The notes under the pieces: generated by a model | Seen by the model: only the letters and a program-made list of their open reading frames with translations | Told to the model about the DNA's origin: nothing | Databases searched by the model: none | Assembly: GCA_016930675.1 (NCBI GenBank) | Contig: JAFGGG010000042.1 | Coordinates: 16,423-80,422, forward strand | Source: Spirochaetales bacterium | Lineage (GTDB): Bacteria > Spirochaetota > Spirochaetia > SZUA-6 > RPPD01 | DNA: 64,000 nt | Direction of reading: 5' to 3' | Shown here: positions 21,276 through 38,410 of the stretch, piece after piece | How positions within the stretch are numbered: the first letter of the stretch is position 1 | Layout: each line of letters begins with the position of its first letter | Program-made: the position numbers and the translations under genes

Positions 21276-21305
21276 CGAGGGGAACATTTGTTTCCCTCGT
21301 TTTTT
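21276..21305. terminator. Bidirectional rho-independent terminator between the convergent 20802-21200 (+) gene and the ape-like cluster (-)
   Basis: Stem cgaggg(g)aa / ttccctcg with 7-nt loop followed by TTTTTT. Reverse complement also ends in a T-run. Confidence 0.6.
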
Positions 21306-21310
21306 AATCC

Positions 21311-22543
21311 TCAGGATTGCTCAAGTCCCCAACGCCGAAAAACCAATGAGGTATTGATTCCGCCAAAAGCAAAATTATTGCACATAATGTATCGTGCTTC
21401 CATGACTCTCCCTTGTCCGGTGATATAATCTATTTGTGCGCAGGCAGGATCGACGTTTTCCAGATTGAGATTAGGCGCGAACCAGTTATCATTCATCATA
21501 TTAATAGCCAGCCAGCTTTCTATGGCCCCACAGGCACCCAAAGTATGGCCCATATAGCTTTTTTGGGTACTTATGGGAACGGCTCTTTGAAAGCAATTAT
21601 ATGTTGCATGACTTTCTGCGATATCTCCGTGATGGGTGGCTGTTCCGTGGCCGTTAACGTAAGCTATCTGGTCGGGATCTATTTCAGCGCTTTTTAAGGC
21701 TTCCCGCATTGCCTTCTCCATAGTATTTTTATCCGGCTGTGTGATATGCTTACCGTCGGTATTTGTTCCAAAGCCGACAAGTTCGGCATAGATATGAGAT
21801 TTTCTCTGCAATGCATGTTCAAGTTCTTCCAGGATAATTGTTCCGGCTCCTTCTCCGATAACCAGACCGTCTCTGTCCTTGTCAAAAGGTCTGGGAGTGA
21901 GATGCGGCGTGTCGTTTTTTATGCTTGTGGCGTACAGGGTGTCAAATACGGCCGATCCTGTGGGATTCAGCTCTTCCGCGCCTCCGCACACCATCACCTT
22001 TTGGTGACCGAATTTAATGGCTTCAAAACCTAAGCCGATGGCCAGGCTTCCCGCAGTGCACGCGGTATTTGAAGTAAGCAGCCGACCGGTTAATCCGAAA
22101 AATAAAGCAATATTTACAGCACACGTCTGAGGCATGGAGCGAATATATGTGGTAGCCGTGATGCCTTGAATATCATTGGTAGTGAGCATGGAGTAGAAAT
22201 CAAGAAGCGCATTCACGTTACCGGTTGAGGATCCGAAAGAGACTCCTGAATCACCGTTTGTCAGAACGGGTGAGTCCAATAATCCGGCGCACTTTAATGC
22301 CATCTCGCTGGCATGCACCGCCATGAGTGCGACTTTGCCCATACCGCGAGTTACTTTTCTGGGATAATCAGGCGGTGTCCACTCTACAGGGGCCGCCAGT
22401 TTGGTATGTAATCGTTTATATTTCTCCCATTCATCCATTCTGGTTATTCCGCTTTTTTTCTGTTTCAGCCGTTTTTTTATCGTAGGCCAGTCATGTCCGA
22501 TCGGAGTTATTACCGAGCCCCCAGTTACGACTACTCTGTTCAT
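21311..22543 (-). CDS. Beta-ketoacyl-ACP synthase (KAS I/II-type; ApeR-like position)
   Basis: 410 aa. Active-site Cys in NTACTAGS. His motifs VNGHGTATHHGD and MGHTLGACG. Confidence 0.8.
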   Translation of the reverse strand: MNRVVVTGGSVITPIGHDWPTIKKRLKQKKSGITRMDEWEKYKRLHTKLAAPVEWTPPDYPRKVTRGMGKVALMAVHASEMALKCAGLLDSPVLTNGDSGVSFGSSTGNVNALLDFYSMLTTNDIQGITATTYIRSMPQTCAVNIALFFGLTGRLLTSNTACTAGSLAIGLGFEAIKFGHQKVMVCGGAEELNPTGSAVFDTLYATSIKNDTPHLTPRPFDKDRDGLVIGEGAGTIILEELEHALQRKSHIYAELVGFGTNTDGKHITQPDKNTMEKAMREALKSAEIDPDQIAYVNGHGTATHHGDIAESHATYNCFQRAVPISTQKSYMGHTLGACGAIESWLAINMMNDNWFAPNLNLENVDPACAQIDYITGQGRVMEARYIMCNNFAFGGINTSLVFRRWGLEQS

Positions 22544-23277
22544 TATATCATTCCTCCATTGACTGAAATCACCTGCCGGGTTATATACGCTGCGGAATCG
22601 GATAAGAGGAAAATTGCCAATGCCGCTACTTCTTCCGGTTTCCCCATCCGCCTGAGAGGAATCATGGTACGAATATGATCCCAGGGAATTTCTTTACTCA
22701 TAGCCGTTTCAATGATACCCGGCGCTATGCAGTTAACCGTAATATTCCGTTTGCCCATCTCAATGGCCAGGGCCTTTGTGGCACCGATAATACCCGCTTT
22801 GGCCGCACTGTAGTTTACCTGTCCGCGGTTTCCCACAAGACCGGATATGGATGAGATAGTAATAATCCGGCCGGGTTTGCGGGTCTGCACCATCGGCATG
22901 ATAAGGGGATGGAGCACATTGTAAAAACTGTCAAGATCAGTGTGGATAACTTTATCCCAATCCTGTTCACTGATAGAGGGAAATGCGTTGTCGGCGGAAA
23001 CTCCTGCGTTACAAACAACACCGTAATAAACTCCATTATGTTCGATATCCTGTTCAAGAACCTGTCTTGTTCGTGCCCTGTCTGTAATGTCAAATTGGAG
23101 AAGACGCCCGCTGTTTCCGCTTTTTAACAGGGATTTTTTTACCTCTGCGGCTCCTTCCGCATCGCTTCGATAGTGAATGATTGCCTCATAACCTGCCGCG
23201 CCCGCGGCCAGGGCAATAGCTTTGCCTATACCCTTGCTGGCTCCTGTTACGAGTACGGATTTTTTTTCTTTATTCAT
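22543..23277 (-). CDS. 3-oxoacyl-ACP reductase (SDR; FabG/ApeQ-like)
   Basis: TGASKGIGKAIA Rossmann motif. Catalytic YSAAK. 244 aa. Confidence 0.8.
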   Translation of the reverse strand: MNKEKKSVLVTGASKGIGKAIALAAGAAGYEAIIHYRSDAEGAAEVKKSLLKSGNSGRLLQFDITDRARTRQVLEQDIEHNGVYYGVVCNAGVSADNAFPSISEQDWDKVIHTDLDSFYNVLHPLIMPMVQTRKPGRIITISSISGLVGNRGQVNYSAAKAGIIGATKALAIEMGKRNITVNCIAPGIIETAMSKEIPWDHIRTMIPLRRMGKPEEVAALAIFLLSDSAAYITRQVISVNGGMI

Positions 23278-23752
23278 TTTGTGCGCCTGTCATTTTTTTT
23301 ATTAGTGTATCATTCGCGGATATGGTGCTTAGAGTGCCTGCCGCGAATTCCTTTTTGGATATTGAAGCCTTTCCTTCGAATACCGCGACATCGCCGTCCC
23401 TGAATACCTGCTTTACAAGAATGGTTACCCTGCTGCCGGGGGCAAAACCCTTCTGGTATGTGATAAAATCGCGTATTGCCATAATAAATCCGATCTTTGG
23501 TCGCTGTGCCTTTAGTATGCTGCTGATACCGGACAGAAGTGCAATGTTTTGCGCCATATATTCAAAGGCAATCCAACAGGGGATGATCCCCGATTCAGCG
23601 TCAAAAAATATACTCTGTTCTGTTACATCGACAGAGGACTTGAGAAAAGCGTGCTCTAAGGAATAATCTTCCAGCCGGTCGATGAGCAGCATGAGGTTTT
23701 TATGAGGAGAGTATTTGAAAAGCTCCGGTTTGGTTACAGGTGTATTAATCAT
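23270..23752 (-). CDS. Hotdog-fold dehydratase (ApeP/FabZ-like)
   Basis: 160-aa protein in the conserved DH slot between KR and KS. Hotdog-like central helix segment (IPCWIAFEYMAQNIALL). Confidence 0.55.
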   Translation of the reverse strand: MINTPVTKPELFKYSPHKNLMLLIDRLEDYSLEHAFLKSSVDVTEQSIFFDAESGIIPCWIAFEYMAQNIALLSGISSILKAQRPKIGFIMAIRDFITYQKGFAPGSRVTILVKQVFRDGDVAVFEGKASISKKEFAAGTLSTISANDTLIKKMTGAQNE

Positions 23753-24940
23753 TTAACCCTCCTCGCGAGTAATGATAAGACTGACATTGCATCCGCCGAA
23801 AGCATAGGAATTACTCATGCAATTATATATTCTTTTCGTCTTATAGCCAACCGGAATAAAATTAAGAACAGGCAGACCCTCTTCAGGCTCTTCGTCCCAA
23901 ATATGAGGCGGGAGCAGGATTTCATCGTCATTTTGAGACAAAACAAGCCAACAGAAAGCCAACTCCATAGCTCCGGCAGCTCCCAGAGTGTGGCCGATCA
24001 TGGTTTTTGTACTGCTGCAGGGAGGAATATTTTTAAAAACACGACCGGTAGCCTTACATTCCATTCTGTCATTCAACATGGTTCCTGTTCCGTGCAGGTT
24101 GATGTAATTAATATCTTCAGCTGCAAGCCCGGCATCCTTAAGAGCTCTACGCATTGATTCCGAGGCCCCAATTCCTTCCGGGTCCGGGGCAGTTATATGA
24201 TAGGCGTCTGAGCTTTCACCGCAGCCTGTCAGGCTGATATTGCACTGTGCAGTCTGATCTTTGGTAACAATAAAGAGAGCAGCTCCTTCACCCAGGTTGG
24301 TTCCCTTGCGGTTTTTACTGAAAGGCTTGCACGGTTCCCTATCTACGGCCTCCAATGAATGGAAGCCGAGGAGAATCGGATCGGATACAATATCCGCGCC
24401 GCCGGTTATTACAGCGTCACAGACTCCCGAATTGAGCAGGCTGCGGGCAAAAATAAAAGCGCGCGCACTGGAAGTACAGGCAGTCGATATATTGCAGGCT
24501 ATACTTTTTAGATTTAGATATTCTTTAACAAAGCAGGAGCTGTTGTGAGCTTCTTGTTTGTGAAAGCTGTAATCTTCCGGAAAAGATCCGCTCTCCTGAT
24601 ATATTCTTAACGCCTGGAGGGATTCCTCCGATCCGTTATCTGTGGAACCTATCACTACACCTATGCGCTGAGACCCGAACCGAGAAATAAGCTTGTCAAC
24701 TGCCGGTCGAATTTGATCACAAGCATAAGCAAGCAGGCGGTTAAGGCGATTATCATAGACACGTGGCAGTTTCCGGGTTTGCTTCGGGCTCACTGCAGCG
24801 ACAGTAAAGGTTCCCTGTGTGTTTGTTTGCCGCTTAAGCCCCTCTCTGCTTCCCCGAAGGAGGTTGTCCAATATCATATGCTTATTATATCCCAAGGCGT
24901 TTATGATCCCCAGATTGTTCAGGTAAATTTTGCTTTTCAC
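23753..24940 (-). CDS. Beta-ketoacyl synthase (ApeO-like position)
   Basis: 395 aa. Active-site Cys in STACTSSARA. His motifs NLHGTGT and IGHTLGAAG. Confidence 0.75.
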   Translation of the reverse strand: MKSKIYLNNLGIINALGYNKHMILDNLLRGSREGLKRQTNTQGTFTVAAVSPKQTRKLPRVYDNRLNRLLAYACDQIRPAVDKLISRFGSQRIGVVIGSTDNGSEESLQALRIYQESGSFPEDYSFHKQEAHNSSCFVKEYLNLKSIACNISTACTSSARAFIFARSLLNSGVCDAVITGGADIVSDPILLGFHSLEAVDREPCKPFSKNRKGTNLGEGAALFIVTKDQTAQCNISLTGCGESSDAYHITAPDPEGIGASESMRRALKDAGLAAEDINYINLHGTGTMLNDRMECKATGRVFKNIPPCSSTKTMIGHTLGAAGAMELAFCWLVLSQNDDEILLPPHIWDEEPEEGLPVLNFIPVGYKTKRIYNCMSNSYAFGGCNVSLIITREEG

Positions 24941-25581
24941 GGTATGGATTCCTCCCGAATAGTATATCCATACTCTCTGAGGTGATTTTTGTAGTTCAGA
25001 TCATTGCCTTTTCGCTGTATATGGATAATGAGTTGTGCTCCGTCTAGTATTCTGCGCACCCAGCCATCGGGCTGCGGGATTTCCTCAAAAATCAGACCGG
25101 CTTCCCGGATCATGGATTCCACGGCAGAGCGCGGAAAATAACATAGCTGAAAATCCGCGACGATATATTCGGGCTTAATATCGGCTGTTGCCTGCGGGCT
25201 GTGAAAAACCATATCGGAATTTTTATATGCCAGATCATAAACTTGGGTGCCGAGGTTGTTGAAACTGATAATATTGATTTCTTCAAGATTGGTTTGAACC
25301 AGGGCTTCAATGGAGTAGGTCCGGGATTTATAATAGCCGTCAATTATCTGATAGATCTCAAACTCATTCTCCACAGCCTGTGTAGGCAACAGGGTAATAT
25401 GTTTTTCGTCGGTAAGGTAAACGGGAGCAGGTATGTGCGTCCCAGGCGGAGAACCGGCGCATGCAGCAGTCATAATGGATACCGTTATCACCATTTTTAA
25501 AATCAGGAGGAGTTGAAATAAAAAAGTTTTATTCTTGATGAAATTGCTATATAATTTCAACACGGATGAGAAAAAAAACAT
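24937..25581 (-). CDS. DUF3261-like lipoprotein (ApeN-like position)
   Basis: Hypothetical secreted protein in the slot between MMPL and KS. Probable true start at the internal Met (MVITVSIMTAACAGS, ~25494), giving a signal peptide with Cys. Confidence 0.4.
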   Translation of the reverse strand: MFFFSSVLKLYSNFIKNKTFLFQLLLILKMVITVSIMTAACAGSPPGTHIPAPVYLTDEKHITLLPTQAVENEFEIYQIIDGYYKSRTYSIEALVQTNLEEINIISFNNLGTQVYDLAYKNSDMVFHSPQATADIKPEYIVADFQLCYFPRSAVESMIREAGLIFEEIPQPDGWVRRILDGAQLIIHIQRKGNDLNYKNHLREYGYTIREESIP

Positions 25582-26221
25582 GGGTATAATTTACTTGGGA
25601 TTAATAAATGTTTCAATACTAAATAGCGATAGATTCAAGGTAAAAGAAGCCACAAAAAATCTCTTTCATACTATGATACGCCGGTTGCATCCTGCTTCAG
25701 CAATTGATCTGGAGGTAAAAACGGGGCCACATGGAAAACCTTATCTTCCCCGACATCCTTCCTGGTACTTCAATGTAAGTCATGCCGGCAGGATGGGAGC
25801 ATGCGCCATAGCACGAATTCCCTTGGGAATTGATATTGAACTGATTGATGAACGGCGGCATTGGAAAACGATCGCGGAGCATTTTTATCATAACCGGGAG
25901 ATCGCCTATCTTTCGAACCAGGCAGGCAACAGCTGCGCAGTATTTTACCATCTATGGACTCGTAAAGAGTCTTGGCTGAAACTCCATGACATGACGATCT
26001 GGCAGACAAGTCAAGCACCGTGCTGCTTGGATTTATCCGACACAGAGACTGATGTATGGACGTGGCAGGGAAGCGGATGTGCTTCGTTCTCCTTATCTCT
26101 TCGGATTAACAGCGATGAAAAAAAATATTCGGTTCGATTTATTGAGGAGTTTATACCTGAAGGAATACACCTGCAGCAGGTTAGTCTGAAGGGGGGCTCT
26201 CTTTTTTGCCGATCAGAATAG
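25535..26221 (+). CDS. 4'-phosphopantetheinyl transferase (Sfp/EntD-type), encoded antisense within the cluster
   Basis: Motifs FNVSHAG, GIDIE, WTRKESWLK. A start at the second in-frame Met (~25580) is possible. 3' end overlaps the MMPL 3' end by 41 bp (convergent). Confidence 0.7.
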   Translation: MMKLLYNFNTDEKKNMGIIYLGLINVSILNSDRFKVKEATKNLFHTMIRRLHPASAIDLEVKTGPHGKPYLPRHPSWYFNVSHAGRMGACAIARIPLGIDIELIDERRHWKTIAEHFYHNREIAYLSNQAGNSCAVFYHLWTRKESWLKLHDMTIWQTSQAPCCLDLSDTETDVWTWQGSGCASFSLSLRINSDEKKYSVRFIEEFIPEGIHLQQVSLKGGSLFCRSE

Positions 26222-28580
26222 GTGTGAGTAAAAACGACAGCAACACGCCCAGAGCAACCGTCAAACCGAAAACAGCGGCCAAAGACGTAAAACCCAGCAT
26301 GCCGAAGCTGAGGATGGTTGTAAGCATACTCAGTGTAATTGCCAGAAGGGTGGGCCGTGGGTGTGATTTTCCTTCGGAAAAAAAGATCACGTAATCCGTG
26401 CCCATGCCCGGAACAAGAATAAGTCCCATTACAGAAAATACATTAAAGGGCAGTCCCGCCAGATTTAGAAAAGAGATCACAATACAACTGGCCAGGCAGG
26501 GAATAATAATTATTTTGAAACCTCTCAGCCATTTATAGCGGAAGACGAGTCCGCCAAAAATCAAAACATACGAGATGCATAAAATAATGAGAGCCAAAAC
26601 ACTGAGACTGTGCAAGGTGGAATTAATTTCGCTGATCCTATTAATGAAATATCTGGAAGAAGAGCTGTTTACAATGGATTTCACTCCTTCAATATTGGTT
26701 ATGTTAAAAAGCATTACCATCGAATAATATTTGTCGTTTGCCTGTCCCAACCAGAGCATAGCAAAAAGATCTCCTATTGGAAAATCTTCCAGGATTTTTA
26801 AATCCACCCACTGGTCCTTTTTCTCACGATAATCAGTTTCCCAACTTTGGATTTCCGCCTTTCCGAAACCCAGCGACTCCAGTTGTGCGGGGATCGCGTT
26901 TTTTAAGTATTTCCCGATCAGTTCATAATTCTCCGCTTGGCGCCCGCGGGAAGGAATGAAAAAAGTCGATCCGAGATATGACTCTATAAAACCATTTTCG
27001 CGTGCTTGTGACAGATCCGAAATAAGCTGTTCTTCCTTTGTTCTGAGGGCTTCGGGGTTATCACCTTCCACTAAAACATATACGCACGAGGAGCCGTGTT
27101 TTAAAATCGAAGACATCAAAGTTTCACTTTTTTTCAATGCCGGACTCATCTGATATAGTGTTCGCACATCACTATTCAACTGTAGCTGAGACAAGCCTGC
27201 GCAGGTTATTCCTAAAAAAAGAATTCCGAAAAAGAATTTTAATAAAAAGGGCAGCTCCTGCAGGTTTTTGAACGCTGTATAAAAAAAAGATCCTGCTTTG
27301 TTGGAAATCCGGCCGGTTTTTTCGCCGGCCCTTTTAAATTTCGGAAAAATAAAAATTACACTCAGATAACTACTCATCAGTCCAATAATAGAAAAAAGAG
27401 CCATTTGTTGAAGAAGGGGAAAAGCGGTAAACACAAACGCCAGGTAGCTGGCTAATGTGGTAAGCAGTCCCAAGCTTATTCCGGGAAGAATAAAACGAAT
27501 AATCCGGGCAACGGATTTTTCACCGGGTAGCGTGGCCCAATGAGCAAAGAAATGCAGAGCATAGTCCAGACTTATACCGATGAGACTCGTTCCAAAAACG
27601 ATTGTGAAAATATGAACATCATGGAAGATCAAAAGGGTGGCTGCAAGACCCGTGACCATTCCTACGATTATAGCTCCGACAGTGGCAAGCAGAGGCTTGA
27701 TGGATCGAAAGACAATCAGAATCATCAGAATGATAAAGAGTATGGAAACCGTACTTAAGAAAGATATCTCTGTTCTGGATGCGCGGGAGCTTTCGTAAGA
27801 GTGAAAGGGTGCGCCGGAAAAAACCAATTCCAAATCAGGCTCCACGGATGAAATTTGCTCTGCTGTACTGTAAATTAAGGAAATCGGACTGTCTTCAACC
27901 TGTACCGAAAAACCGGATCCTGCTGTTCTCGCGGAAATCAGAACCCATGATTTACCTTCATAATCAGTACTTAAAACACCGTCTCGCAGTCCGACGGACA
28001 TGTTTGTAAGAATACCCGAGTTCAGGTAGTACTGGAGACTGGAATTAACCAATAAAAAGGGATCGAGATCCAAATGATCCAGACTGCCCAAACTCAAAGG
28101 ACTTGCCACCGCCATATAAGCATTTTCTGCCAGTTCTTGTATTCTTCCGTTAAGGAGAATTGCTCGGATTTCGGGAGTCAGTAACTGGTAGCGGTAAATA
28201 AAAAGAAAGTCCTGTAGCTGTTTGAGATTTGTTTTGTCAATTTCCAATCGCACATTTTGGAATCCGCTGTGAGTTCGCATACGCGAAACCATTTTTACAG
28301 CGTACGAGCGAGCGGTGGTAAAATCCTTATGTCCGATAAGGAGATAAACAGCACTGTTAAACCTCTGATTGATGACCTTCTCCACATTGGAGACGGCTTT
28401 TACGGGACTGGTATGTGGCAGGAGAGAGGTAAGGTCGCTGTTCACGGAATAGTTACCGCTTAAAAGCAAACAAAGGAAAATGAACACATGGAAACAAATC
28501 CAAATGAGGAGATGAAATTTCCTGCTATTCTGCCAGCACTTAAAAAAAAGATTAAAAGAAGGCTTTTTCATCAGCAGCAC
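26181..28580 (-). CDS. MMPL/RND-superfamily exporter (ApeM-like)
   Basis: 799 aa. Two blocks of ~6 TM helices separated by large soluble loops. Confidence 0.7.
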   Translation of the reverse strand: MLLMKKPSFNLFFKCWQNSRKFHLLIWICFHVFIFLCLLLSGNYSVNSDLTSLLPHTSPVKAVSNVEKVINQRFNSAVYLLIGHKDFTTARSYAVKMVSRMRTHSGFQNVRLEIDKTNLKQLQDFLFIYRYQLLTPEIRAILLNGRIQELAENAYMAVASPLSLGSLDHLDLDPFLLVNSSLQYYLNSGILTNMSVGLRDGVLSTDYEGKSWVLISARTAGSGFSVQVEDSPISLIYSTAEQISSVEPDLELVFSGAPFHSYESSRASRTEISFLSTVSILFIILMILIVFRSIKPLLATVGAIIVGMVTGLAATLLIFHDVHIFTIVFGTSLIGISLDYALHFFAHWATLPGEKSVARIIRFILPGISLGLLTTLASYLAFVFTAFPLLQQMALFSIIGLMSSYLSVIFIFPKFKRAGEKTGRISNKAGSFFYTAFKNLQELPFLLKFFFGILFLGITCAGLSQLQLNSDVRTLYQMSPALKKSETLMSSILKHGSSCVYVLVEGDNPEALRTKEEQLISDLSQARENGFIESYLGSTFFIPSRGRQAENYELIGKYLKNAIPAQLESLGFGKAEIQSWETDYREKKDQWVDLKILEDFPIGDLFAMLWLGQANDKYYSMVMLFNITNIEGVKSIVNSSSSRYFINRISEINSTLHSLSVLALIILCISYVLIFGGLVFRYKWLRGFKIIIIPCLASCIVISFLNLAGLPFNVFSVMGLILVPGMGTDYVIFFSEGKSHPRPTLLAITLSMLTTILSFGMLGFTSLAAVFGLTVALGVLLSFLLTPILIGKKESPPSD

Positions 28581-29633: not shown

Positions 29634-31158
29634 AATTAAGGCTCCAATGACGACTTCTGATGAGAGTAACGATTTCTCGTAATTCTTTTTCCAAAGGCCG
29701 GTCTTCATCAATAAATGTAAAAACTTCGTATATTTGATCTAGAGTATCTGCAACAGGTTCGAGCATTTCCGTTTTCAGTTCACCGGCTTTTTTTCGCAGC
29801 TCTATGGCTTGAGCCACGGCAAGCAGACAGGCGGCGGTTACCTGTTCCGTCAGTTCAAGAACGCGAATACAGTCCCGCGCGGAAATCGTACCCATACTCA
29901 CCTTATCCTGGTTGTGGCATTCCGTGGATCTGGAGAAGACGCTTGCGGGCATAGTGTTCTTGAGAGCTTCCGCAGTCCAGGCTGACACACCGATCTGTAC
30001 AGCCTTGAACCCATGGTTGTAGGAGTGGTCTTTGCTCCCGGAAAGATTGGGAGGAAGACCTCGATTGTATTTTTCATCAACCAAGACAGCCAGCTGTCGG
30101 TCCAGCAGGTCTGCGATATTGGCAATAATATTCTTTAAAGAGTCCATTACAAATGCGATATGACCGCCGTAAAAATGTCCTCCGTGCATAATTGAACGGC
30201 TTTTCGGATCTATAATGGGATTATCATTCGCGCTATTCAATTCGTTTTCGATCATTTGTCTGAACAGAGCGGCTGAATCATAGAAGATCCCGATTATGTG
30301 CGGAGCGCAGCGAAGTGAATAAGGATCCTGGATTCGTTCGGCCGTAATTCCCATTTTTGCATAACATTCCAAATCCTTAAGGATTCTACTTGCTGACAGA
30401 TTTTGCCCGGGATGGTTCTTAACCGCGAAAAGTTTTTCATCAAAATGATGCGCGTTGCCTTTAAGCGCCAGTACAATCATGGCGGTGATGCGGCAGGATA
30501 AATCAGCGAGGTATTCAGCTCGTTTGAAGGCGAAACAGGCTATGGCTGTCATCACCGCTGTTCCGTTCATTATGGCTAAACCTTCCTTGGGACGGAGTTT
30601 GACCAAAGGAAGATCGAGTTTATCCAAAATGTCTTTTGCCGATCGCTTTTCCCCTTTATACAGTACGTCCCGTTCTCCTATGAGAACTGCTGCGACATAG
30701 GAGAGTGGCGTGAGATCGCCGCTGGCTCCGACGGAACCTTCCTGGGGGATAAGGGGCAGAATGTCGTGGTGCAGCAGTTCTGCCAAACCCTGGAGAAGCT
30801 CGTAACTTACACCGGAAAAACCCAGACAGAGAGATTGAAGCCGAGTCGCGATAATAGCTCTGGTGGTCTCTTCATCAAAATAATCGCCAAGGCCGCAGCC
30901 GTGAAAGCGAGTCAGATTAACGGGGAGATTGTGATACCGCTTATCTGGTACGGTTTTGCTGCAGGAATCACCAAATCCTGTGGTTACTCCGTAAATATTT
31001 CCATTGGCGGCCAGGACCTCATCAAGGAACTGAGCGCCGCTGTTGATTTTTTTCTTGAAAGATTCGTCTTTTGCCAACACGGCGGCAAGCTGTTGTTTGG
31101 ACAGTCCTATGATATTTTCAATAGTCAGTCGTTCTCCGTTAAATTCTACATGGTTCAT
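29623..31158 (-). CDS. MIO-dependent aromatic amino-acid ammonia-lyase (HAL/PAL/TAL family; context suggests tyrosine/phenylalanine ammonia-lyase)
   Basis: 511 aa. MIO-forming triad Ala-Ser-Gly in GSVGASGDLTPLSYVA. FHGCGLG segment places His at the expected selectivity-switch position. No hut genes nearby. Confidence 0.8.
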   Translation of the reverse strand: MNHVEFNGERLTIENIIGLSKQQLAAVLAKDESFKKKINSGAQFLDEVLAANGNIYGVTTGFGDSCSKTVPDKRYHNLPVNLTRFHGCGLGDYFDEETTRAIIATRLQSLCLGFSGVSYELLQGLAELLHHDILPLIPQEGSVGASGDLTPLSYVAAVLIGERDVLYKGEKRSAKDILDKLDLPLVKLRPKEGLAIMNGTAVMTAIACFAFKRAEYLADLSCRITAMIVLALKGNAHHFDEKLFAVKNHPGQNLSASRILKDLECYAKMGITAERIQDPYSLRCAPHIIGIFYDSAALFRQMIENELNSANDNPIIDPKSRSIMHGGHFYGGHIAFVMDSLKNIIANIADLLDRQLAVLVDEKYNRGLPPNLSGSKDHSYNHGFKAVQIGVSAWTAEALKNTMPASVFSRSTECHNQDKVSMGTISARDCIRVLELTEQVTAACLLAVAQAIELRKKAGELKTEMLEPVADTLDQIYEVFTFIDEDRPLEKELREIVTLIRSRHWSLNYDS

Positions 31159-32141
31159 TTAGATGCTCCCTTATTGTTGTTTTTTAAGGTCTGAGGAGTT
31201 TTCCAGAAATCAAAAAAATTATACCATTGATAAGGATGCTTGCGGCATAGATCTTCCAGATAGTGGATATATTCTTCCATTAAACCCTTAATTTTAGCCA
31301 TGCGTTCCTTTCGTGATCCGGAAAGATCAAATTTGGATTTATAGACATGGAATTCATAGGGACTCTTCAGATCTAGATCATGTTTGCGAACTGCGAACAT
31401 ATGATAAAGCGGTGCGTCCAGAAGACTGGCAAGAATAAATGCGCCTATTGGCAAATGCGCCTCTTTACCGAGAAATTTAAGAACTATGGTTTTTGATTGG
31501 TTTTTAGCGGCCGTTCTGTCCGCGGCAATGATTACAAGTTCACCTTGATTAAGCCGGTTTGAAAGATCGATAATGGTATCGGCTCCGATCGCCGAAGCAC
31601 TGATGAGCCGCAACATTGAAGCAGGATTTATTTCTGAAAGCAGTCTGTTAAATTTGCTTGTACCGGAAAAGTCTACGATTGAGTTAATACCGAATGGCGG
31701 AAGAGATGTGCCGGCTTCAAGACTGGCGAGCGCGCGCAGCATCTCCGTATTGCCTAAATGTGAACAGAGAATAACGGCACCTTTTCCATCTATAAGCTGT
31801 TTGACCAGCAGGTCGATATCCGAACTCTTTAACAAGAGATCTTTAACGGTAATCTGTTGTGACCAGGCAGCGAGTTTTTCTAAAAGCGCGTAGGCAAAAC
31901 AATAAAAGTGCCTGTACACGTTTTTCAATGTGACGGAAGGCAGATGCTCAAGACGGGCTACTGCGCTCAGGAAGTTTCTGCTTACTCTCCGGGAACCCGG
32001 TGAAAAGAGAAAGAAAAAAAATACAATAAAATGCAGAAGGGTTCTCATCGTATGCAGACCAAGGTTGCGGTAGAGATTGAAGACTAATTTCATTTGCCAG
32101 ACGCTGCCGGCCATCTCTTTCTGTTTCGACCAATGAGTCAT
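31155..32141 (-). CDS. LpxL/HtrB-like lysophospholipid (lipid A-type) acyltransferase (ApeJ-like)
   Basis: N-terminal TM helix. H-x4-acid segment (CSHLGNTE). 328 aa. Family assignment from overall pattern and position. Confidence 0.55.
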   Translation of the reverse strand: MTHWSKQKEMAGSVWQMKLVFNLYRNLGLHTMRTLLHFIVFFFFLFSPGSRRVSRNFLSAVARLEHLPSVTLKNVYRHFYCFAYALLEKLAAWSQQITVKDLLLKSSDIDLLVKQLIDGKGAVILCSHLGNTEMLRALASLEAGTSLPPFGINSIVDFSGTSKFNRLLSEINPASMLRLISASAIGADTIIDLSNRLNQGELVIIAADRTAAKNQSKTIVLKFLGKEAHLPIGAFILASLLDAPLYHMFAVRKHDLDLKSPYEFHVYKSKFDLSGSRKERMAKIKGLMEEYIHYLEDLCRKHPYQWYNFFDFWKTPQTLKNNNKGASK

Positions 32142-32914
32142 CGGCTTTCTCCTTTTTTTAAATGCCGTTTTATTTTTTTTAAAATCAGATGGGGGAATTT
32201 TATCAGCATATTAAAAAAGAGAATTGTGTGAATCCGGCTGATCGCCAGATTGTCTCTGAATAAATGAAAATGAGATCTTCCTCCTTCGGGATAGATTATT
32301 TTAATGGGGAGAAATTTCATCCGTACTCCCATCCAGTAAAGACGTACGAGAATTTCAATATCGAATTCCATTCGGAGCGAGAGGCGTTTTGAGCTCAACA
32401 AACGGTGGCAGGCTGTGAGAGGATATACTCTGAATCCACACATCGCGTCCGGGATCTCTCTGGAAATAGTCTCCACCATCACCCAAAAATTTGTGATTTC
32501 TCGTCCGATTTTACGGGACGTGGGTGCTGAGTCGTCGTATATGGGTTGCCCGGCAATTAACATGTCGGGAACCTTGTGAGCCTGGTCTAAAAAAATAACA
32601 ATTTGTTCCAGATCATGCTGGCCGTCGGCATCTATCTGAAGAGCATGGGAAAATCCTGCTTCATATGCTTTTTTAAGGCCATAAGCCACGGCGCTGCCTT
32701 TACCGCGGTTGACCGGCAATGTATGGAGTGCGCAGTTATCCATGCGCCGTGTGATCGCTCGCAACTGTTTTTTTGTATCCGCGTTGCTCCCGTCGTCTAT
32801 AAGCATGACGGGCAGGCCGTGATCGGCACAGGCATCAACAACATCTCCGACAGTCGAGCCGTGATTATACACCGGTATAATCACGCAGGGTCTAAACTCA
32901 GAAGCAAAGCTCAT
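32138..32914 (-). CDS. Family 2 glycosyltransferase (DPM1-like)
   Basis: VMLIDDGS and QIDADGQHD (DxD) motifs. 258 aa. Confidence 0.7.
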   Translation of the reverse strand: MSFASEFRPCVIIPVYNHGSTVGDVVDACADHGLPVMLIDDGSNADTKKQLRAITRRMDNCALHTLPVNRGKGSAVAYGLKKAYEAGFSHALQIDADGQHDLEQIVIFLDQAHKVPDMLIAGQPIYDDSAPTSRKIGREITNFWVMVETISREIPDAMCGFRVYPLTACHRLLSSKRLSLRMEFDIEILVRLYWMGVRMKFLPIKIIYPEGGRSHFHLFRDNLAISRIHTILFFNMLIKFPHLILKKIKRHLKKGESR

Positions 32915-34641
32915 GTTGTTTCCTTAAATATGATTTTTCCTTGAGAATAAGCTGTTCCATCCTGAGGATTTTTATAACTGAATTTTATTTGCTTATTATC
33001 TAAATTTAAATGAATATCGAGGTTTACCGGTGTGTCGGGGAAAATAGGTTTCAGCAGTTTAAACAGGGGTATTTTTTGCATAGCAATGTTAAGTCCAGAC
33101 TTTTTTTGTAAAAACTTCATGACCCAGTCCACCTGCGCCACGGCCGGGAGGATTTTCATTTCCGGGAAATGCCCTTGAAAGTGAATATAATCCTCAGGAA
33201 AACTTAATGTGAGCAATATTCTATCAATTTTCTGCTTACTGTCAAGGATTACGGGTTCCAAACAGTAGGCTGAAGCTTCTTTGTTAAACAGCTCCTTTAT
33301 GATGTTAATATTGATCTTTCCCTGGGTATTTCGTGGTATGGATTCGAGAAAGCGCCATTTTTTGGGTATGACCGTAAGTTCAAAATACGGTCGTAAAAAA
33401 TATCTAAAAAAGTCGTTGAGGTCTTTTTTCTGTTTGCCCTTGAATTTTATGCTTCCTTTCCGGTTGAGCACTACAGCAGCCGCCAAAAATTGACGACCCT
33501 TTTCCAGGGCAAGAACAATTACATCTTCAACAAGTCCGGTTTGGATGATTCTGTTTTCAACGTCGTTAAGTGCCACCCTCTTTTCTTCAATTTTAACGAT
33601 GGAATCCGTTCTGCCGAACAAGCGCAAGGTACCGTCATCGAGAATTTCTACACGGTCATCGATTGTAAGGAAACCGGATTCGCTTAAATAAGGGGATGAA
33701 AGAGCTAGATGTATTCCATCCGGCGATTTTATTTTGATGCCGGGGAATGGAGTCCAGGATAGGTTTCCCGGAGAAATTCTCCAGGCAATGCCGCCTGTTT
33801 CCGTGCTTCCATAGATCTCAAACACATCGGTTCCCAGATAAGCCCGACTTTGGACGGCAGAGAAGTCAGGGAGGAATCCTCCGGAAGAAAAAACCTTCCT
33901 GGGGGATTTCTTAAGCAGGGGAAGAGAGTTTTTATCACTAAGGCGCTTTAAAAAGGCGGGACTGGTGACAAGGACTGTGTTTTGTTTACCCACATGCGTC
34001 AAGCTTTCGGGATAATGAACTCTCATGGGAGCTATAGAGGATCCCAGACAAAAAGGCAACAGCGCTGTAAAAAGAAATCCATAGTAATGTTGCGGACTTA
34101 CGGTGGAGTAGACTGTTGCGTTGTGGTAATCATTACTCCAAAGCTTGGCCAGGTTTTTTAGCTCGTTTTCTATTTGGATAAAGGTTTTTGGGACCTGTTT
34201 GGGTTTTCCCGTACTTCCGGATGTATGAAATGTAATTAGGATTTTTCCCGCGTCTAAAAGGGGAAAATCTTGAGGGGCAGTCTCTGAAAACGATTCTTCA
34301 CTGAAGCATAACTTCAATGTTGCGTTTTCTACAGAATCACTTAATAGAGGAGCATCTGCTTCAGGTGAGGAAACCGGAATAATAGGCGCGGTATGAGGCA
34401 GATGTACTTCTTTTCCGCATTGCAATAAGGCAAACAGGCCGAGGATAAAGAGACTATGATCTTCTGCGAACAGACTCCAGCGATCGTTAGGGGAGGATGC
34501 AATTTTTGATCTTAAAAATTCAAGCTCGCGGGTAAAGCGGTTCCAGGTTATCGCCTTTCTTCCTTGTTGAGATATTGAAAACAGATGATCCTGATTTCTG
34601 GAGGATGAAGAGAGTGATAAGAGGGAAATATAATCTGTCAT
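32911..34641 (-). CDS. AMP-dependent (acyl/aryl)-CoA/ACP ligase fused to a C-terminal FabZ-like hotdog dehydratase domain (ApeH+ApeI-like)
   Basis: AMP-binding motif TSGSTGKPK. C-terminal ~130 aa with FabA/Z-like HFQGHFPEMKILPAV motif. 576 aa. Confidence 0.7.
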   Translation of the reverse strand: MTDYISLLSLSSSSRNQDHLFSISQQGRKAITWNRFTRELEFLRSKIASSPNDRWSLFAEDHSLFILGLFALLQCGKEVHLPHTAPIIPVSSPEADAPLLSDSVENATLKLCFSEESFSETAPQDFPLLDAGKILITFHTSGSTGKPKQVPKTFIQIENELKNLAKLWSNDYHNATVYSTVSPQHYYGFLFTALLPFCLGSSIAPMRVHYPESLTHVGKQNTVLVTSPAFLKRLSDKNSLPLLKKSPRKVFSSGGFLPDFSAVQSRAYLGTDVFEIYGSTETGGIAWRISPGNLSWTPFPGIKIKSPDGIHLALSSPYLSESGFLTIDDRVEILDDGTLRLFGRTDSIVKIEEKRVALNDVENRIIQTGLVEDVIVLALEKGRQFLAAAVVLNRKGSIKFKGKQKKDLNDFFRYFLRPYFELTVIPKKWRFLESIPRNTQGKININIIKELFNKEASAYCLEPVILDSKQKIDRILLTLSFPEDYIHFQGHFPEMKILPAVAQVDWVMKFLQKKSGLNIAMQKIPLFKLLKPIFPDTPVNLDIHLNLDNKQIKFSYKNPQDGTAYSQGKIIFKETT

Positions 34642-35225
34642 CTGCTCAACTTTACTTTTCTATAAAGATATTCTCCTGCCAACAGTGCTCCAATGAAAAT
34701 GTAGGAGATGAAGCCATTATAAATTGCCCAGATAATTTCATCTGCCAGGAAAGCGGTGAGCGCGGAAACAGAGCCGTTGAAAATAAAAAAAATACACCAG
34801 ATTCGGGTTACGACCATGCAGTATGATTTGATGGCTTTATTGTCCGCTGAATCGGGGATGCTCTTATCTTTAAGAATCGCGAAACGGTAGATCATGGAGG
34901 GGCCGCGGAATAAGGTGAAACCAAAGCTTGCAAGCAAGGATATATTTATAATTACGGGGTAAAGTTTGAGAAGTCCTGCATTCTCGGTTAGAAATGTCAA
35001 AAACGCAAGCGCCGCAACCACAATGGTCATCACCCAGAATTGTATGCCGCGGAATCCTTTACTCTTTCCATCCCCGGAATAAGTGATAAAATACACGAGA
35101 CCGATGGCCACAAGGGCAAGCACTAACACTCTTGGACTTGCCTTGAACCAGAGAAATCCGATCAGAATTGTAAAAGGATATAGTACGGAAAGGATAAAAA
35201 GTACAATTTTTAGTACTCGATTCAC
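34638..35225 (-). CDS. Polytopic membrane protein (hypothetical; cluster-associated)
   Basis: 195 aa, 5-6 predicted TM helices. Confidence 0.45.
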   Translation of the reverse strand: MNRVLKIVLFILSVLYPFTILIGFLWFKASPRVLVLALVAIGLVYFITYSGDGKSKGFRGIQFWVMTIVVAALAFLTFLTENAGLLKLYPVIINISLLASFGFTLFRGPSMIYRFAILKDKSIPDSADNKAIKSYCMVVTRIWCIFFIFNGSVSALTAFLADEIIWAIYNGFISYIFIGALLAGEYLYRKVKLSR

Positions 35226-35488
35226 TAAACCGGTCCATTATTCTCTTTTATAAGCTGATGAACGGCATCCACGATATCTCCTACGTTCCGCACATTTTTA
35301 AATACTTCGGGAGCTATTTTGCGATCAGTGTAGTTTTGAAGTTTGACAATTAAATCCACAGCATCAATGCTGTCCAGATCCATGTCTTCAAAAAGCCGGG
35401 TCTCGGATTTGATATTTTCTTTTGGAATTTCAAAAGTTTCATTGAGTATGGTGGCGACCTCTTTGAATATGTTTTCTTTAGACATCAT
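35225..35488 (-). CDS. Acyl carrier protein
   Basis: 87 aa. Phosphopantetheine-attachment Ser in DLDSIDAVDL. Confidence 0.7.
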   Translation of the reverse strand: MMSKENIFKEVATILNETFEIPKENIKSETRLFEDMDLDSIDAVDLIVKLQNYTDRKIAPEVFKNVRNVGDIVDAVHQLIKENNGPV

Positions 35489-35500
35489 TTTTTTCTCCAG

Positions 35501-35785
35501 TTATTTATTACGTTCGCCCTCAGCTATAAAATTGGCAAGTGTGCGTACAGAATAAAAGTGTTTCTGATTATCTTTATCTTCAGCAGATAGATTTATATTA
35601 TACTTTTTTTTAATCGCTATGCCGAGTTCCAACGCGTCGATTGAATCCAAACCAAGGCCTTCTCCGAACAGGGGTGCCTCGGGATCAATATCTTCAGGAG
35701 TAATATCCTCTAAATCAAGCGAGTTGATGATTATTAATTTTATTTGCGCTTCGAGATTCTTCATTGAACTATGATTTTTATCCAT
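35501..35785 (-). CDS. Acyl carrier protein (second copy)
   Basis: 94 aa. GLGLDSIDALEL motif. Confidence 0.7.
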   Translation of the reverse strand: MDKNHSSMKNLEAQIKLIIINSLDLEDITPEDIDPEAPLFGEGLGLDSIDALELGIAIKKKYNINLSAEDKDNQKHFYSVRTLANFIAEGERNK

Positions 35786-36548
35786 TAATAATAGCTTTTT
35801 TCAAATCTTGCGTCAATAGTCTTGACGCTTTGGCTATGGACAAGTCAGTATATTTTTTGGGTTCTAAGAGGCTTTTTATCTTTAAATGATACCTCACAAT
35901 CCCGGAATCAGGTGATGAGAAAGCTGAATCACCTTTTGCAAGTCCTTTAGGGGAACCGGCAGAAATCTGAATCGGGAGGATGCTGAACCCTGTGCGGAGG
36001 GATATCTGCGCAGCACTTCGCTGCAGCCTGATATTCTGACTGTCCATAGTCCGCGTTCCTTCAGGAAAAATAATGAGATTATTCCCTTTCCTGAGTGAAC
36101 GGTCACATGCTTTTATGGTATCTTCCGCATTCAATGAATTGGGAATGTATACGCTTCTCACCACACCCTTGATGAAAATATTATTCCAGAGTTTGGCTTT
36201 GACAATACAATCAGCCTGGGGCACTAAACTCATAAGGATTACCACGTCAATAAGTGAGGGATGGTTTGCGCAGATTATCATGTGACGGAAATTTTTTATT
36301 ATTGTTACGTTATCGACTTTTAAACTTATAAGTCTTAAGAATCTCATTAGATAAACGAATATGCTAAAGCTGAAACGAATAATGCTGCGTTTGATATGAC
36401 TGAGGCGATCTCCGTGCTGGATAAAAATATTAATAACGGGAAATAAGATGTTCGCCAGAATAAGGCTGCCTATACCGAACCAAAAAAAAGCATAAAACTT
36501 GGCTATTACATGATATACCTGACGGATTTTTTTATAGACAAACATCAT
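35778..36548 (-). CDS. 1-acyl-sn-glycerol-3-phosphate acyltransferase-family protein (PlsC-like; ApeD-like)
   Basis: HX4D motif NHPSLIDV. FPEGTRT motif. N-terminal TM segment. Confidence 0.7.
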   Translation of the reverse strand: MMFVYKKIRQVYHVIAKFYAFFWFGIGSLILANILFPVINIFIQHGDRLSHIKRSIIRFSFSIFVYLMRFLRLISLKVDNVTIIKNFRHMIICANHPSLIDVVILMSLVPQADCIVKAKLWNNIFIKGVVRSVYIPNSLNAEDTIKACDRSLRKGNNLIIFPEGTRTMDSQNIRLQRSAAQISLRTGFSILPIQISAGSPKGLAKGDSAFSSPDSGIVRYHLKIKSLLEPKKYTDLSIAKASRLLTQDLKKAIING

Positions 36549-37285
36549 GAGGGATTAGTCCTTAACATCATTTTTATTCCGGAGGCATGACAGCTAAAGG
36601 GATCCTGGCTGTCCGTGGCAAGCCAGCGCAGAAAACAAAGAGGATGCTCAGGAGATGTATTGTTGGCAGAGCTATTAATCTCAATTGTACAGGCGCGTGA
36701 TCCGGGCAGTGATGTGGAAGAGAAAAGCACTCCCAAAGCATAAGGTTCCGGAATAGAACTAAACAGAGAATGATAAGCGGGGGGAATATTCTCATCGGCA
36801 AAAATAACCATGCAGTCCTTTCCCGTATTTGATTGAAGAAATCCTATCATTTCCAAAAAAGCCACAACGAGGCATTGGTCGCCTGAGTAGACCGCTGAAC
36901 TTGTTTCATTGTTTCCTTCGGCGATAGACAGGAGAAACGCCGGCGCGTTGAAAACAGAAAGACTAAAAACGGCCGGGCTTACCTCCTGGGTATCGATAAG
37001 CTGTTTTGAGATCTTGTACTGTTTATTGATTTCTCCGTAGTGCGACGCAAAAACACAGGGTGTCTGCTTCTCAGCCGGTATCAGAGTGTGCCCTATGTGC
37101 AGAACCATCTTGCTCAGCTGGCTAAGTCTGCGTCGGAAAAGAGACGGCAGAAATTCCAAAGCAGGTGTTTCTGATGTCTTGCGAATTTCCGTTTCCCCTC
37201 GCCCCCAGGATTGCACGGCTTGAACGGTTTCTAATCCCGGAGCCCAGGCTGTCCATCGGGATAGATACAGAGAAAAGCTTTTCAT
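36545..37285 (-). CDS. Beta-ketoacyl synthase-like N-terminal-domain protein (chain-length-factor-like partner; ApeC-like)
   Basis: 246 aa, no active-site Cys motif. Sits in the slot of the truncated KS-like protein of ape clusters. Assigned by position and weak thiolase-fold similarity. Confidence 0.4.
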   Translation of the reverse strand: MKSFSLYLSRWTAWAPGLETVQAVQSWGRGETEIRKTSETPALEFLPSLFRRRLSQLSKMVLHIGHTLIPAEKQTPCVFASHYGEINKQYKISKQLIDTQEVSPAVFSLSVFNAPAFLLSIAEGNNETSSAVYSGDQCLVVAFLEMIGFLQSNTGKDCMVIFADENIPPAYHSLFSSIPEPYALGVLFSSTSLPGSRACTIEINSSANNTSPEHPLCFLRWLATDSQDPFSCHASGIKMMLRTNPS

Positions 37286-38410
37286 TTAAGTTTTCCTGAA
37301 TCTGAGAATTGAGTAGTCGTGAGGACCTACGTCGTGTATTTCCCCCTGCAGAGCGAATCCCGCCCTGGTTATGGCGCGAATCAATTCATGGGATTTATAC
37401 ATTTTACTGTTTCCATTGGCCATGGTTGTGAAGTAAAGCGAGGTTGCGTGCAAAGAGTAGGTTGCGGCAGGATAGTGTTGTTTATCCCAAAAAGGTTCCA
37501 TTATAAATATATCACAGTTTATAGCTACGGCTTCCGCTACCTTGCTTAAAATTTGTGTTACTTGGTCCAGGGAAAAGCAGTCCAAGAACTGGCTCATCCA
37601 TACCGCATCGGCATTTTCCGGAAGTTCCGCTTCAGGATCAAGTACGTTTGCTTCATGAATAAAGATCCGTTCCGCGGCACCGGCTCGGGTTATATTCTGC
37701 CGGGCAAGATCGGCTTGCCCGGGAAGGTCCACGATGGTAATCTTCACGTCTGAGTTATAATTATAGCAGGTTAAAGCCCACTTGGCCGTGTTCCCTCCGA
37801 TATCCACAAGATGCCTTCTGGGCCGGGCAAAAACAAACTCCAAAGCCTCGGAAAAGGCTCTGTCGGAATAGAAATGGTCGAACCCGAACCAACTTTTTTG
37901 TACCTCTTGAGGAAGTGATGACAGTCCTTCATAGATGGTCTGCCAATCACCAAAGACTTTAAGCCCGGCCGGTTTTCCTTGTTTTAGGGCTTGTTCCGTG
38001 TAGAATCCTCCTTTATAACAGACATCATGCATGAAATCCATATTTACCCTGGTTAACGGATCATGGAGCAGGAAATAACCGGTTTTGCCTAATATGTATC
38101 GCCAAGGTCTGATGTGGGGTTTGATTTTTAGCATATCCATACTTAAACCTATTTCAAGCAGAACTCCGACGGCATAGTCACTTAGGTCCAAAGAGTCTGT
38201 TATCTGTTCTCGGGTTAATCCTTCATCCTTCGCACCGGAGAGGAGTTCAAGAACTCCCAAATCGCGTAAACTGCGCGCTGCCTGGAAGGTTAAAGGAGCA
38301 AAAGCAATTTTTTGGGCATTGAATTTTGCATGTACCGCTGCAATGTTATCCTCTGAGTACCATTTTTCCAGTATTGGATTATATTCATCATTCACGGCAC
38401 ATTTTACCAT
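37286..38410 (-). CDS. Class I SAM-dependent O-methyltransferase (dimerisation-domain type; ApeB-like)
   Basis: 374 aa. SAM-binding LVDIGGNTAKWAL. Acidic loop TIVDLPG. First gene of the cluster. Confidence 0.65.
   Translation of the reverse strand: MVKCAVNDEYNPILEKWYSEDNIAAVHAKFNAQKIAFAPLTFQAARSLRDLGVLELLSGAKDEGLTREQITDSLDLSDYAVGVLLEIGLSMDMLKIKPHIRPWRYILGKTGYFLLHDPLTRVNMDFMHDVCYKGGFYTEQALKQGKPAGLKVFGDWQTIYEGLSSLPQEVQKSWFGFDHFYSDRAFSEALEFVFARPRRHLVDIGGNTAKWALTCYNYNSDVKITIVDLPGQADLARQNITRAGAAERIFIHEANVLDPEAELPENADAVWMSQFLDCFSLDQVTQILSKVAEAVAINCDIFIMEPFWDKQHYPAATYSLHATSLYFTTMANGNSKMYKSHELIRAITRAGFALQGEIHDVGPHDYSILRFRKT

Follow-up and report, generated by a model that had tools for sequence, protein, structure and literature searches.

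A probable complete aryl polyene gene cluster of the lyase-containing APE_Vf type in an uncultured member of the Spirochaetales

The window analyzed here is a stretch of 64,000 nucleotides from the metagenome-assembled genome (MAG) of a Spirochaetales bacterium (NCBI assembly GCA_016930675.1, contig JAFGGG010000042.1, positions 16,423 to 80,422), and its proteins are deposited as MBN1799469-MBN1799490. Its central part carries an ape gene cluster, i.e. a biosynthetic gene cluster (BGC) for an aryl polyene (APE), a type of yellow membrane pigment. The locus very probably represents a complete, apparently functional ape cluster of the lyase-containing APE_Vf type in this uncultured member of the Spirochaetales. 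An earlier note, made from the letters alone, had described an ape-type cluster in the order apeB to apeR with three "non-canonical" additions, namely an embedded ammonia-lyase, an antisense phosphopantetheinyl transferase (PPTase) and a ligase-dehydratase fusion. Type and order of the cluster were confirmed by collinearity with E. coli CFT073 and by Ape-specific Pfam and NCBIfam families. The supposed peculiarities, however, are typical of the family or of the lineage: lyase and fusion are widespread in relatives, and the PPTase recurs in other spirochaetes.

Open reading frames (ORFs) were taken from a six-frame list, and domains were assigned by Pfam and NCBIfam profile searches of the window proteins. 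An unbroken run of minus-strand ORFs extends from 38410 to 21311 and encloses one plus-strand ORF (25535-26221). All 19 ORFs of the earlier description were recovered at their positions, each with the domain named there, including the embedded 4-methylideneimidazole-5-one (MIO) ammonia-lyase, the antisense PPTase and the fusion of an AMP-ligase with a dehydratase (DH). The cluster reaches beyond this run, with an apeA homologue on the opposite strand behind apeR (Table 1). In the 20 genes, the six-frame ORF list contains no frameshift and no internal stop codon. Catalytic residues are intact, i.e. the Cys-His-His set of the ketosynthases (KS), the serines of the acyl carrier proteins (ACPs), the GHF motif of the DH, the Ala-Ser-Gly of the MIO lyase and the PPTase motifs, and the chain-length factor (CLF) is devoid of the Cys. 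Family membership, gene identities, gene order, intact motifs and conservation were all read directly from the sequences.

The core set of ape clusters according to Grammbitter et al. (bioRxiv 10.1101/2020.12.19.423268) comprises nine genes for KS, CLF, ACP, DH, ketoreductase (KR) and the transporter ApeM. All nine (apeO, apeR, apeC, apeE, apeF, apeI, apeP, apeQ and apeM) are present according to Pfam and NCBIfam assignments and matches to the E. coli proteins. The ApeH ligase as well as apeD, apeJ, apeK, apeG, apeL, apeM, apeN and apeA were also found in collinear order. The outcome that was to speak against an ape cluster, a placement of KS, KR and DH in ordinary fatty acid synthase clades, was not observed. 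Instead, these proteins belong to Ape families and not to housekeeping FabF, FabB, FabG or FabZ: the FabF, FabB and FabZ models stayed below their cut-offs, and the models PRK09116, PRK09185, TIGR01831 and ApeP-like passed theirs (Table 1), as did ApeI-like (34 bits, cut-off 28.5). As a control, E. coli ApeR, ApeO, ApeQ, ApeE, ApeF and ApeB gave the same best NCBIfam models as their window counterparts; this control covered KS, KR, ACPs and ApeB, and the DHs were outside of it.

The experimentally characterized ape cluster of E. coli CFT073 (apeA-apeR, c1204-c1186; gene table in PMC8253772) was used as the reference in a protein-by-protein BLASTP comparison. For 17 of the 18 E. coli Ape proteins a collinear partner was found in the window (26-62% identity). 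ApeB to ApeM, ApeO, ApeP, ApeQ and ApeR each match the collinear window gene best (27-62% identity), and ApeN was matched through Pfam DUF3261 only. E. coli ApeJ, a single protein, corresponds to two proteins of the window, with the glycosyltransferase (GT2) representing one half and the LpxL-type acyltransferase the other. The clusters of E. coli CFT073 (APE_Ec) and Xenorhabdus doucetiae (APE_Xd) share with the window the collinear series apeB-apeR, the same NCBIfam and Pfam families and the overlap of reading frames (PMC8253772). In contrast to the window, E. coli has no lyase and takes its 4-hydroxybenzoate (4-HBA) starter from UbiC, its cluster contains no PPTase, ApeH and ApeI are separate proteins, and ApeJ is one fusion of glycosyltransferase and acyltransferase.

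Table 1. Features of the ape cluster in the window (bits are profile scores, with the model's cut-off in brackets where given; percentages are amino acid identities to the E. coli protein)
Feature	Assignment	Position	Strand	Remarks
apeA	ApeA-like lipoprotein	20802..21200	+	convergent with apeR; 132 aa; BLASTP to E. coli ApeA 26% over 124 aa, E 1e-9
terminator	likely terminator, 12-pair hairpin followed by a T-run	21274..21301	+	between convergent apeA and apeR; consensus match only
apeR	initiation ketosynthase	21311..22543	-	NF006587/PRK09116 645 bits (470); 52% to ApeR; FabF model 344 bits, below cut-off; Cys/His/His motifs intact
apeQ	ketoreductase (FabG2 type)	22543..23277	-	TIGR01831 376 bits (339); 61% to ApeQ
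apeP	dehydratase	23270..23752	-	ApeP-like PF22817 40.1 bits (27); 28% to ApeP
apeO	elongation ketosynthase	23753..24940	-	NF006618/PRK09185 422 bits (407); 39% to ApeO; Cys/His/His intact
apeN	DUF3261 LolB-like lipoprotein	24937..25494	-	PF11659 52 bits; lipobox MTAAC
PPTase	Sfp/AcpT-type PPTase	25580..26221	+	PF01648 45.5 bits (25); antisense to the operon
apeM	RND/MMPL exporter	26181..28580	-	PF03176; 27% over 792 aa to ApeM, E 5e-64
apeL	LolA-like carrier	28552..29196	-	PF03548; 27% to ApeL, E 8e-22
apeK	4HBT thioesterase	29196..29633	-	PF13279/PF03061; 40% to ApeK from query residue 34
lyase	MIO aromatic amino acid ammonia-lyase	29623..31158	-	PF00221 523 bits
apeJ, C-terminal half	LpxL-type acyltransferase	31155..32141	-	PF03279; aligns with ApeJ 248-553, E 2e-51
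apeJ, N-terminal half	GT2 glycosyltransferase	32138..32914	-	PF00535; aligns with ApeJ 4-252, 46%
apeH-apeI	fusion, 576 aa	32911..34641	-	PF00501 and PF22818 in one ORF
apeG	integral membrane protein (COG4648 type)	34638..35225	-	37% to ApeG, E 1e-26; no match in Pfam and NCBIfam searches
apeF	acyl carrier protein	35225..35488	-	NF003757/PRK05350 114.5 bits (65); 52% to ApeF; DLDSID
apeE	acyl carrier protein	35501..35785	-	NF006617/PRK09184 101.7 bits (70); 62% to ApeE; LGLDSID
apeD	PlsC-type lysophospholipid acyltransferase	35778..36548	-	PF01553; 41% to ApeD
apeC	chain-length factor, KS-like	36545..37285	-	PF13723 140 bits; 29% to ApeC; KS position without Cys
apeB	SAM-dependent ring methyltransferase	37286..38410	-	PF21212 and PF00891; 48% to ApeB

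Relatives of the lyase were searched with one genome per species, which gave 591 relatives, and the best 80 (57-64% identity) were examined for locus layout. In addition, 85 related loci (L001-L085) were mapped by tblastn with all window proteins. The best 80 relatives belong to Treponema and other Spirochaetota, to Fibrobacter and to many Gammaproteobacteria, among them Vibrio, Aliivibrio, Photobacterium, Shewanella, Pseudomonas, Pseudoalteromonas, Methylobacter and Stenotrophomonas. In the 80 loci, the lyase occupies the same slot between the acyltransferase part of apeJ and apeK; about 60 gammaproteobacterial, about 11 Fibrobacter and about 12 Spirochaetota loci have it there. Nearly every full-length locus is ordered C D E F G H(I) J-GT J-AT lyase K L M (N) O P Q R, where GT and AT are the two parts of ApeJ. 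Because this order recurs in nearly all full-length loci, the embedded lyase is a hallmark of the APE_Vf-type subfamily. An earlier publication likewise names an ammonia lyase as a gene characteristic of aryl polyene clusters and refers to the A. fischeri cluster MIBiG BGC0000837 (PMC8719888); this publication and the direct inspection of Aliivibrio and Vibrio loci form the basis for regarding the lyase as an APE_Vf feature. Two Aliivibrio loci (L053 and L055) carry the lyase in this slot. It is, consequently, no unusual addition, since nearly all full-length gammaproteobacterial loci retrieved have it at the same site, including those of Aliivibrio, the genus of the APE_Vf reference.

Compared to the APE_Vf type (Aliivibrio fischeri ES114, BGC0000837, with members in Vibrio, Photobacterium, Shewanella, Pseudomonas and Methylobacter), the window has the same gene order from C to R and the same MIO lyase in the same slot, with 57-62% identity and the same three lyase motifs. 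The differences concern the host, the ends of the cluster and the PPTase. The host phylum is Spirochaetota, in line with the non-proteobacterial setting that had been proposed from the sequence; the V-ATPase context is likewise present, with the A, B and I subunits encoded at 3024-8552. In the window, apeB is co-directional and heads the operon, and apeA is located at the far end of the cluster, whereas in Vibrionaceae apeB is divergent and apeA adjoins it. An antisense PPTase gene is found between apeM and apeN. Finally, apeN is detectable in the window, while gammaproteobacterial apeN genes mostly remain below the tblastn threshold.

The closest relatives are two spirochaete loci, L001 from the cultured Oceanispirochaeta sp. 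GCA_003346715.1 and L005 from a 4.49-Mb genome, which show the highest identities to the window for nearly every gene. Their layout is identical to that of the cluster in the window: ApeH and ApeI are fused, ApeJ is split, the lyase is present, and an antisense PPTase gene with a convergent 3' overlap is placed between apeM and apeN. Overall, protein identities between the window and the Spirochaetota and Fibrobacter clusters range from 31 to 76%, which indicates different genera. The Fibrobacter clusters differ further, as they have no PPTase, an inverted apeB-C-D block and an apeG fused to apeH-I. Because the identity to the window decreases for nearly every gene from Spirochaetota to Fibrobacter to Gammaproteobacteria, the cluster is assigned to a spirochaete/Fibrobacter branch and does not appear to be a recent import. 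Surveys with antiSMASH have already recorded arylpolyene clusters for Spirochaetota (Treponema_D, rumen MAGs; PMC10904984, PMC9177762); no report on their chemistry was found in the literature. With the window, the most widespread BGC family of bacteria gains a well-resolved example from a spirochaete, and the APE_Vf layout with its lyase is seen to extend over Gammaproteobacteria, Fibrobacterota and Spirochaetota. Culturable hosts with this layout (Oceanispirochaeta, Fibrobacter) would give access to the role of an antioxidant membrane pigment in anaerobes. The current understanding of aryl polyene biosynthesis is left unchanged by the cluster.

Substrates, product, localization and enzyme functions of the cluster are proposed by analogy to homologues characterized in E. 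coli and Xenorhabdus; the functions of ApeH, ApeR, ApeO:C, ApeD, ApeJ, ApeM/L/N and AcpT have been described (PMC8253772; bioRxiv 10.1101/2020.12.19.423268). In the proposed pathway, the MIO lyase would deaminate an aromatic amino acid, most probably tyrosine, to an aryl-acrylic acid, 4-coumarate. The ApeH domain of the fusion would adenylate 4-coumarate and load the acid directly onto ApeE, once the cluster PPTase has turned ApeE and ApeF into holo-ACPs. ApeR would perform the first condensation with malonyl-ACP, whereupon ApeO-ApeC (KS-CLF), ApeQ (KR) and ApeI/ApeP (DH) would iterate to give a conjugated polyene. The ring would be methylated by ApeB, and ApeD, the split ApeJ and ApeK would join the chromophore to a glyco-phospholipid anchor. 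ApeG, ApeM, ApeL, ApeN and the lipoprotein ApeA are the candidates for carrying the lipid to the outer membrane.

Several observations weigh against a functional cluster which starts from 4-coumarate. At the selectivity switch, Phe-His of the lyase aligns with His89-Leu90 of the Rhodobacter sphaeroides tyrosine ammonia-lyase (RsTAL), so that the His-Leu switch of canonical tyrosine ammonia-lyases (TALs) is missing, and the lyase passes no NCBIfam equivalog cut-off. The ApeH of Xenorhabdus was shown to load 4-hydroxybenzoate and not coumarate (PMC8253772). On the level of expression, apeB and several other genes have no recognizable Shine-Dalgarno motif, the antisense PPTase gene breaks the operon, and a consensus promoter scan found no convincing promoter for apeN-apeR.

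The lyase was examined with respect to its substrate. R. sphaeroides TAL (2o6y) is the nearest solved structure. The Ala-Ser-Gly triad which forms the MIO group is contained in a GASGD motif (residues 144-148) which does not vary among 85 sequences, and all 85 ape-embedded lyases have the motifs [F/Y]HGCG, GASGD and TECHNQD in common. The switch is Phe-Leu in phenylalanine ammonia-lyases (PALs) and Ser-His in histidine ammonia-lyases (HALs), and the [F/Y]-H-G-C-G of the 85 lyases fits no canonical TAL, PAL or HAL pattern. The ape-embedded lyases make up a coherent subfamily with a motif class of its own; no assay of a member was found in the literature. At motif 2, HNQD aligns with ANQD of RsTAL, i.e. 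the residue is the Gln of the TAL/PAL type and not the Glu of histidases, according to the rule that Gln at this position marks TAL/PAL and Glu marks HAL (PMC3992019). By context and analogy, tyrosine is most likely the substrate, which would give the 4-coumarate starter.

Another reading of the same ape machinery is that the lyase acts on phenylalanine or another aryl-alanine, so that a (substituted) cinnamate would be the starter and the head group would be unlike the 4-hydroxyphenyl of known APEs. It draws on the PAL-type Phe at the first switch position, on the invariance of a motif which matches no canonical class, and on the failure of the lyase to reach an NCBIfam TAL equivalog cut-off. 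We consider it improbable. In FlxA, a proven TAL, motif 1 is HAL-like and motif 2 has the Gln, which demonstrates that an enzyme with a non-canonical motif 1 can still be a TAL (PMC3992019). The His at the second switch position could bind a phenol. Furthermore, Aliivibrio loci of the same layout carry the same lyase subfamily, and the APE_Vf product reportedly has a 4-hydroxy-dimethylphenyl head group.

The earlier note had also suggested that the product could be a new structural variant, with the ape scaffold and a flexirubin-style starter derived from the ammonia-lyase; the cluster would then be a hybrid of ape and flexirubin chemistry that makes a new structural class. Flexirubin clusters (Chitinophaga pinensis, Flavobacterium johnsoniae) resemble the window in the lyase-derived aryl starter, a type II polyketide synthase-like polyene assembly, a ring methyltransferase and a LolA-like protein (PMC3992019), and four window proteins score on flexirubin models: the methyltransferase on FlxJ (486 bits), the lyase on FlxA (356 bits), the KR on FlxB (270 bits) and the LolA-like protein on LolA2_flexi (80 bits). 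All four scores, however, are below the equivalog cut-offs (560, 700, 340 and 125 bits, respectively). The E. coli proteins ApeB and ApeQ, whose cluster has no flexirubin chemistry, served as controls and reached 470 bits on FlxJ and 266 bits on FlxB, respectively; since ApeB scores like the window methyltransferase, the FlxJ link to flexirubins was dropped. Among the cluster and flanking ORFs, Pfam and NCBIfam searches detected no DarA/DarB dialkylresorcinol genes, and the sole DarB match was one of 21 bits on apeR. In contrast to flexirubin clusters, the window has no free 4-coumarate-CoA ligase; its ligase is ApeH-like and fused to ApeI, unlike the free FlxY CoA ligase. By its sequence as well as its position, the lyase is an orthologue of the ape lyases of Vibrio and Aliivibrio, and the lipid-anchoring genes apeD and apeJ belong to the APE-lipid pathway (bioRxiv 10.1101/2020.12.19.423268). 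The hybrid is largely refuted by this evidence, and we regard it as very unlikely. Least credible of all is a pathway to a fatty-acid or conjugated-acyl lipid without aryl head group, or a decaying remnant without product: for the same enzymes in Xenorhabdus, it has been proposed that they also assemble a conjugated C26:5 acyl chain without an aryl group on ApeF (bioRxiv 10.1101/2020.12.19.423268), but the aryl-acid ligase, the aromatic amino acid lyase and the ring methyltransferase are present and intact in the window, the 20 genes are free of frameshifts and internal stops, all catalytic motifs are conserved, and the layout is conserved across phyla.

The PPTase contains the motifs GIDIE and WTRKESWLK (WxxKEsxxK), and thus both the Mg-binding motif and the W/FxxKE motif of such enzymes. 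Its best NCBIfam model is AcpT with 58 bits, below the cut-off of 174. In L001 and L005 the gene has the same position and orientation, and its convergent 3' overlap with apeM amounts to 55-57 nt there compared to 41 nt in the window. In other loci, a PPTase gene adjoins apeN (a Treponema MAG), separates apeD from apeE (the Spirochaetota MAG of locus L007) or is found upstream of apeC (two Cellvibrionales loci). Ape clusters have acquired PPTase genes on several occasions; in every locus examined here the gene is on the opposite strand. A dedicated Sfp-type PPTase (AcpT) for ApeE/F has been established in E. coli O157:H7, according to work cited in PMC8253772. Because the gene recurs in ape clusters, at the same site in L001 and L005, and because a pairing of AcpT with ApeE/F is known from that citation, the antisense PPTase is not regarded as a non-canonical addition.

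The ligase-dehydratase fusion comprises the aryl-acid:ACP ligase at residues ~1-455 and the ApeI dehydratase at residues ~474-570, the latter with the GHF hot-dog motif. In BLASTP against the separate E. coli proteins, it matches ApeH with 30% identity (E 1e-55) and ApeI with 35% (E 7e-11). The ApeH and ApeI domains occur together in all of the 120 best database homologues, and in 38 of the 69 assessable loci, including the Pseudomonas, Methylobacter and Stenotrophomonas members of the APE_Vf type, a single frame uninterrupted by stops encodes both. The claim of a non-canonical fusion was therefore discarded. Other fusions were observed as well (P0004, P0036, P0040 and others; L004): many Fibrobacter proteins, of about 780 aa, are ApeG-ApeH-ApeI fusions, and one protein of 836 aa from a metagenome is an ApeH-ApeI-GT2 fusion. 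Adjacent ape genes fuse repeatedly (H-I, G-H-I, H-I-J), and ApeJ occurs split or fused.

Several start codons were revised. The longest ORF of apeN extends to 25581, and the likely start is ATG 25494 (codon 30), based on the alignment of homologues and the lipobox. For the PPTase, the longest ORF begins at 25535, and ATG 25580 is the likely start, since the N-terminus then aligns with those of L001 and L005. The longest ORF of apeK extends to 29711, and its likely start is ATG 29633, which is preceded by GGAG. ApeE possibly starts at ATG 35764. GGAG-type Shine-Dalgarno motifs precede 9 of the 20 chosen starts and weaker AGGA/GGA motifs precede 4 more. The apeA homologue has an AGGAGG motif and a signal peptide with the lipobox VFSC; homologues adjoin the ape clusters in L001, L005-L007 and Vibrio loci (tblastn).

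When the starts of the longest ORFs are used, neighbors abut or overlap at 15 of the 16 junctions between same-strand genes, and at 13 of these 15 by 0-8 nt. The two longer overlaps, lyase/apeK with 89 nt and apeL/apeM with 29 nt, change to 11 nt and 20-29 nt with the refined starts. The sole gap is apeE/apeF with 12 nt, and apeD/apeE may be separated by 13 nt if apeE starts at the downstream ATG. A long break in the operon exists only in the apeM-apeN interval, the site of the PPTase. The PPTase gene and apeN are divergent, with an 85-nt spacer (25495-25579) between the likely starts, and the 3' ends of the PPTase gene and apeM overlap convergently by 41 nt (26181-26221). Because of this arrangement, apeN-apeR would be read either through the antisense PPTase gene or from a promoter inside of it. 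As most genes abut or overlap, the cluster probably forms one or two polycistronic units, apeB-apeM and apeN-apeR, which are parted by the antisense PPTase gene. Downstream of apeR, the hairpin listed in Table 1 was the best site of the region in the scan for terminator-like structures; beyond this hairpin, scanning the cluster for promoters and terminators yielded no decisive signal.

Two points of interest remain, namely the lyase subfamily with Phe/Tyr-His at the switch and the antisense PPTase gene, whose nested position is conserved and which is found with a convergent apeM overlap of 41-57 nt in three distant genomes. Taken together, they allow the speculation that the Spirochaetota ape branch is self-sufficient, in that the nested PPTase gates apeN-apeR by transcriptional interference or antisense RNA and the [F/Y]-His lyase supplies a starter other than 4-coumarate. 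We consider this unlikely. If true, the head group would be new to aryl polyenes and would occur in ubiquinone-less anaerobes, in which a pigment protecting from reactive oxygen species is unexpected.

The regions flanking the cluster were inspected for further members. Two secreted or lipoprotein-like proteins are encoded upstream of apeB on the minus strand (38526-39302, 258 aa; 39317-40528, 403 aa). They gave no Pfam or NCBIfam match, had no counterpart in the 85 related loci in tblastn and show no likeness to DarA/DarB, and were rejected as cluster members. On the other side, an alpha/beta hydrolase (19587-20639, minus strand) adjoins apeA and reaches 129 bits on the phospholipase BipL model (cut-off 450); it was rejected as well, since it is not conserved with ape clusters in the 85 loci (tblastn).

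A short way upstream of the ape cluster, beyond the two secreted or lipoprotein-like proteins, a LolCDE-like ABC exporter and a PF17131 LolA-like protein are encoded on the minus strand (40581-44687). This operon contains two FtsX permeases and a LolD-like ATPase (234 bits), and is another lipid or lipoprotein sorting system; it is mostly outside of the 10-kb flanks covered in the related loci. Neither tRNA genes nor Rfam families were detected within the window. Further upstream, the minus strand encodes a WD40/beta-propeller protein of 1013 aa (44823-47864), a protein of 616 aa without family match (47891-49741) and a protein of 374 aa with a faint match to the Omp85 family (49677-50801). 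On the plus strand, a GH5 cellulase with a CBM4_9 module is encoded at 52165-54213, and a 742-aa protein combining a metallo-beta-lactamase fold with two cNMP-binding domains at 11194-13422.

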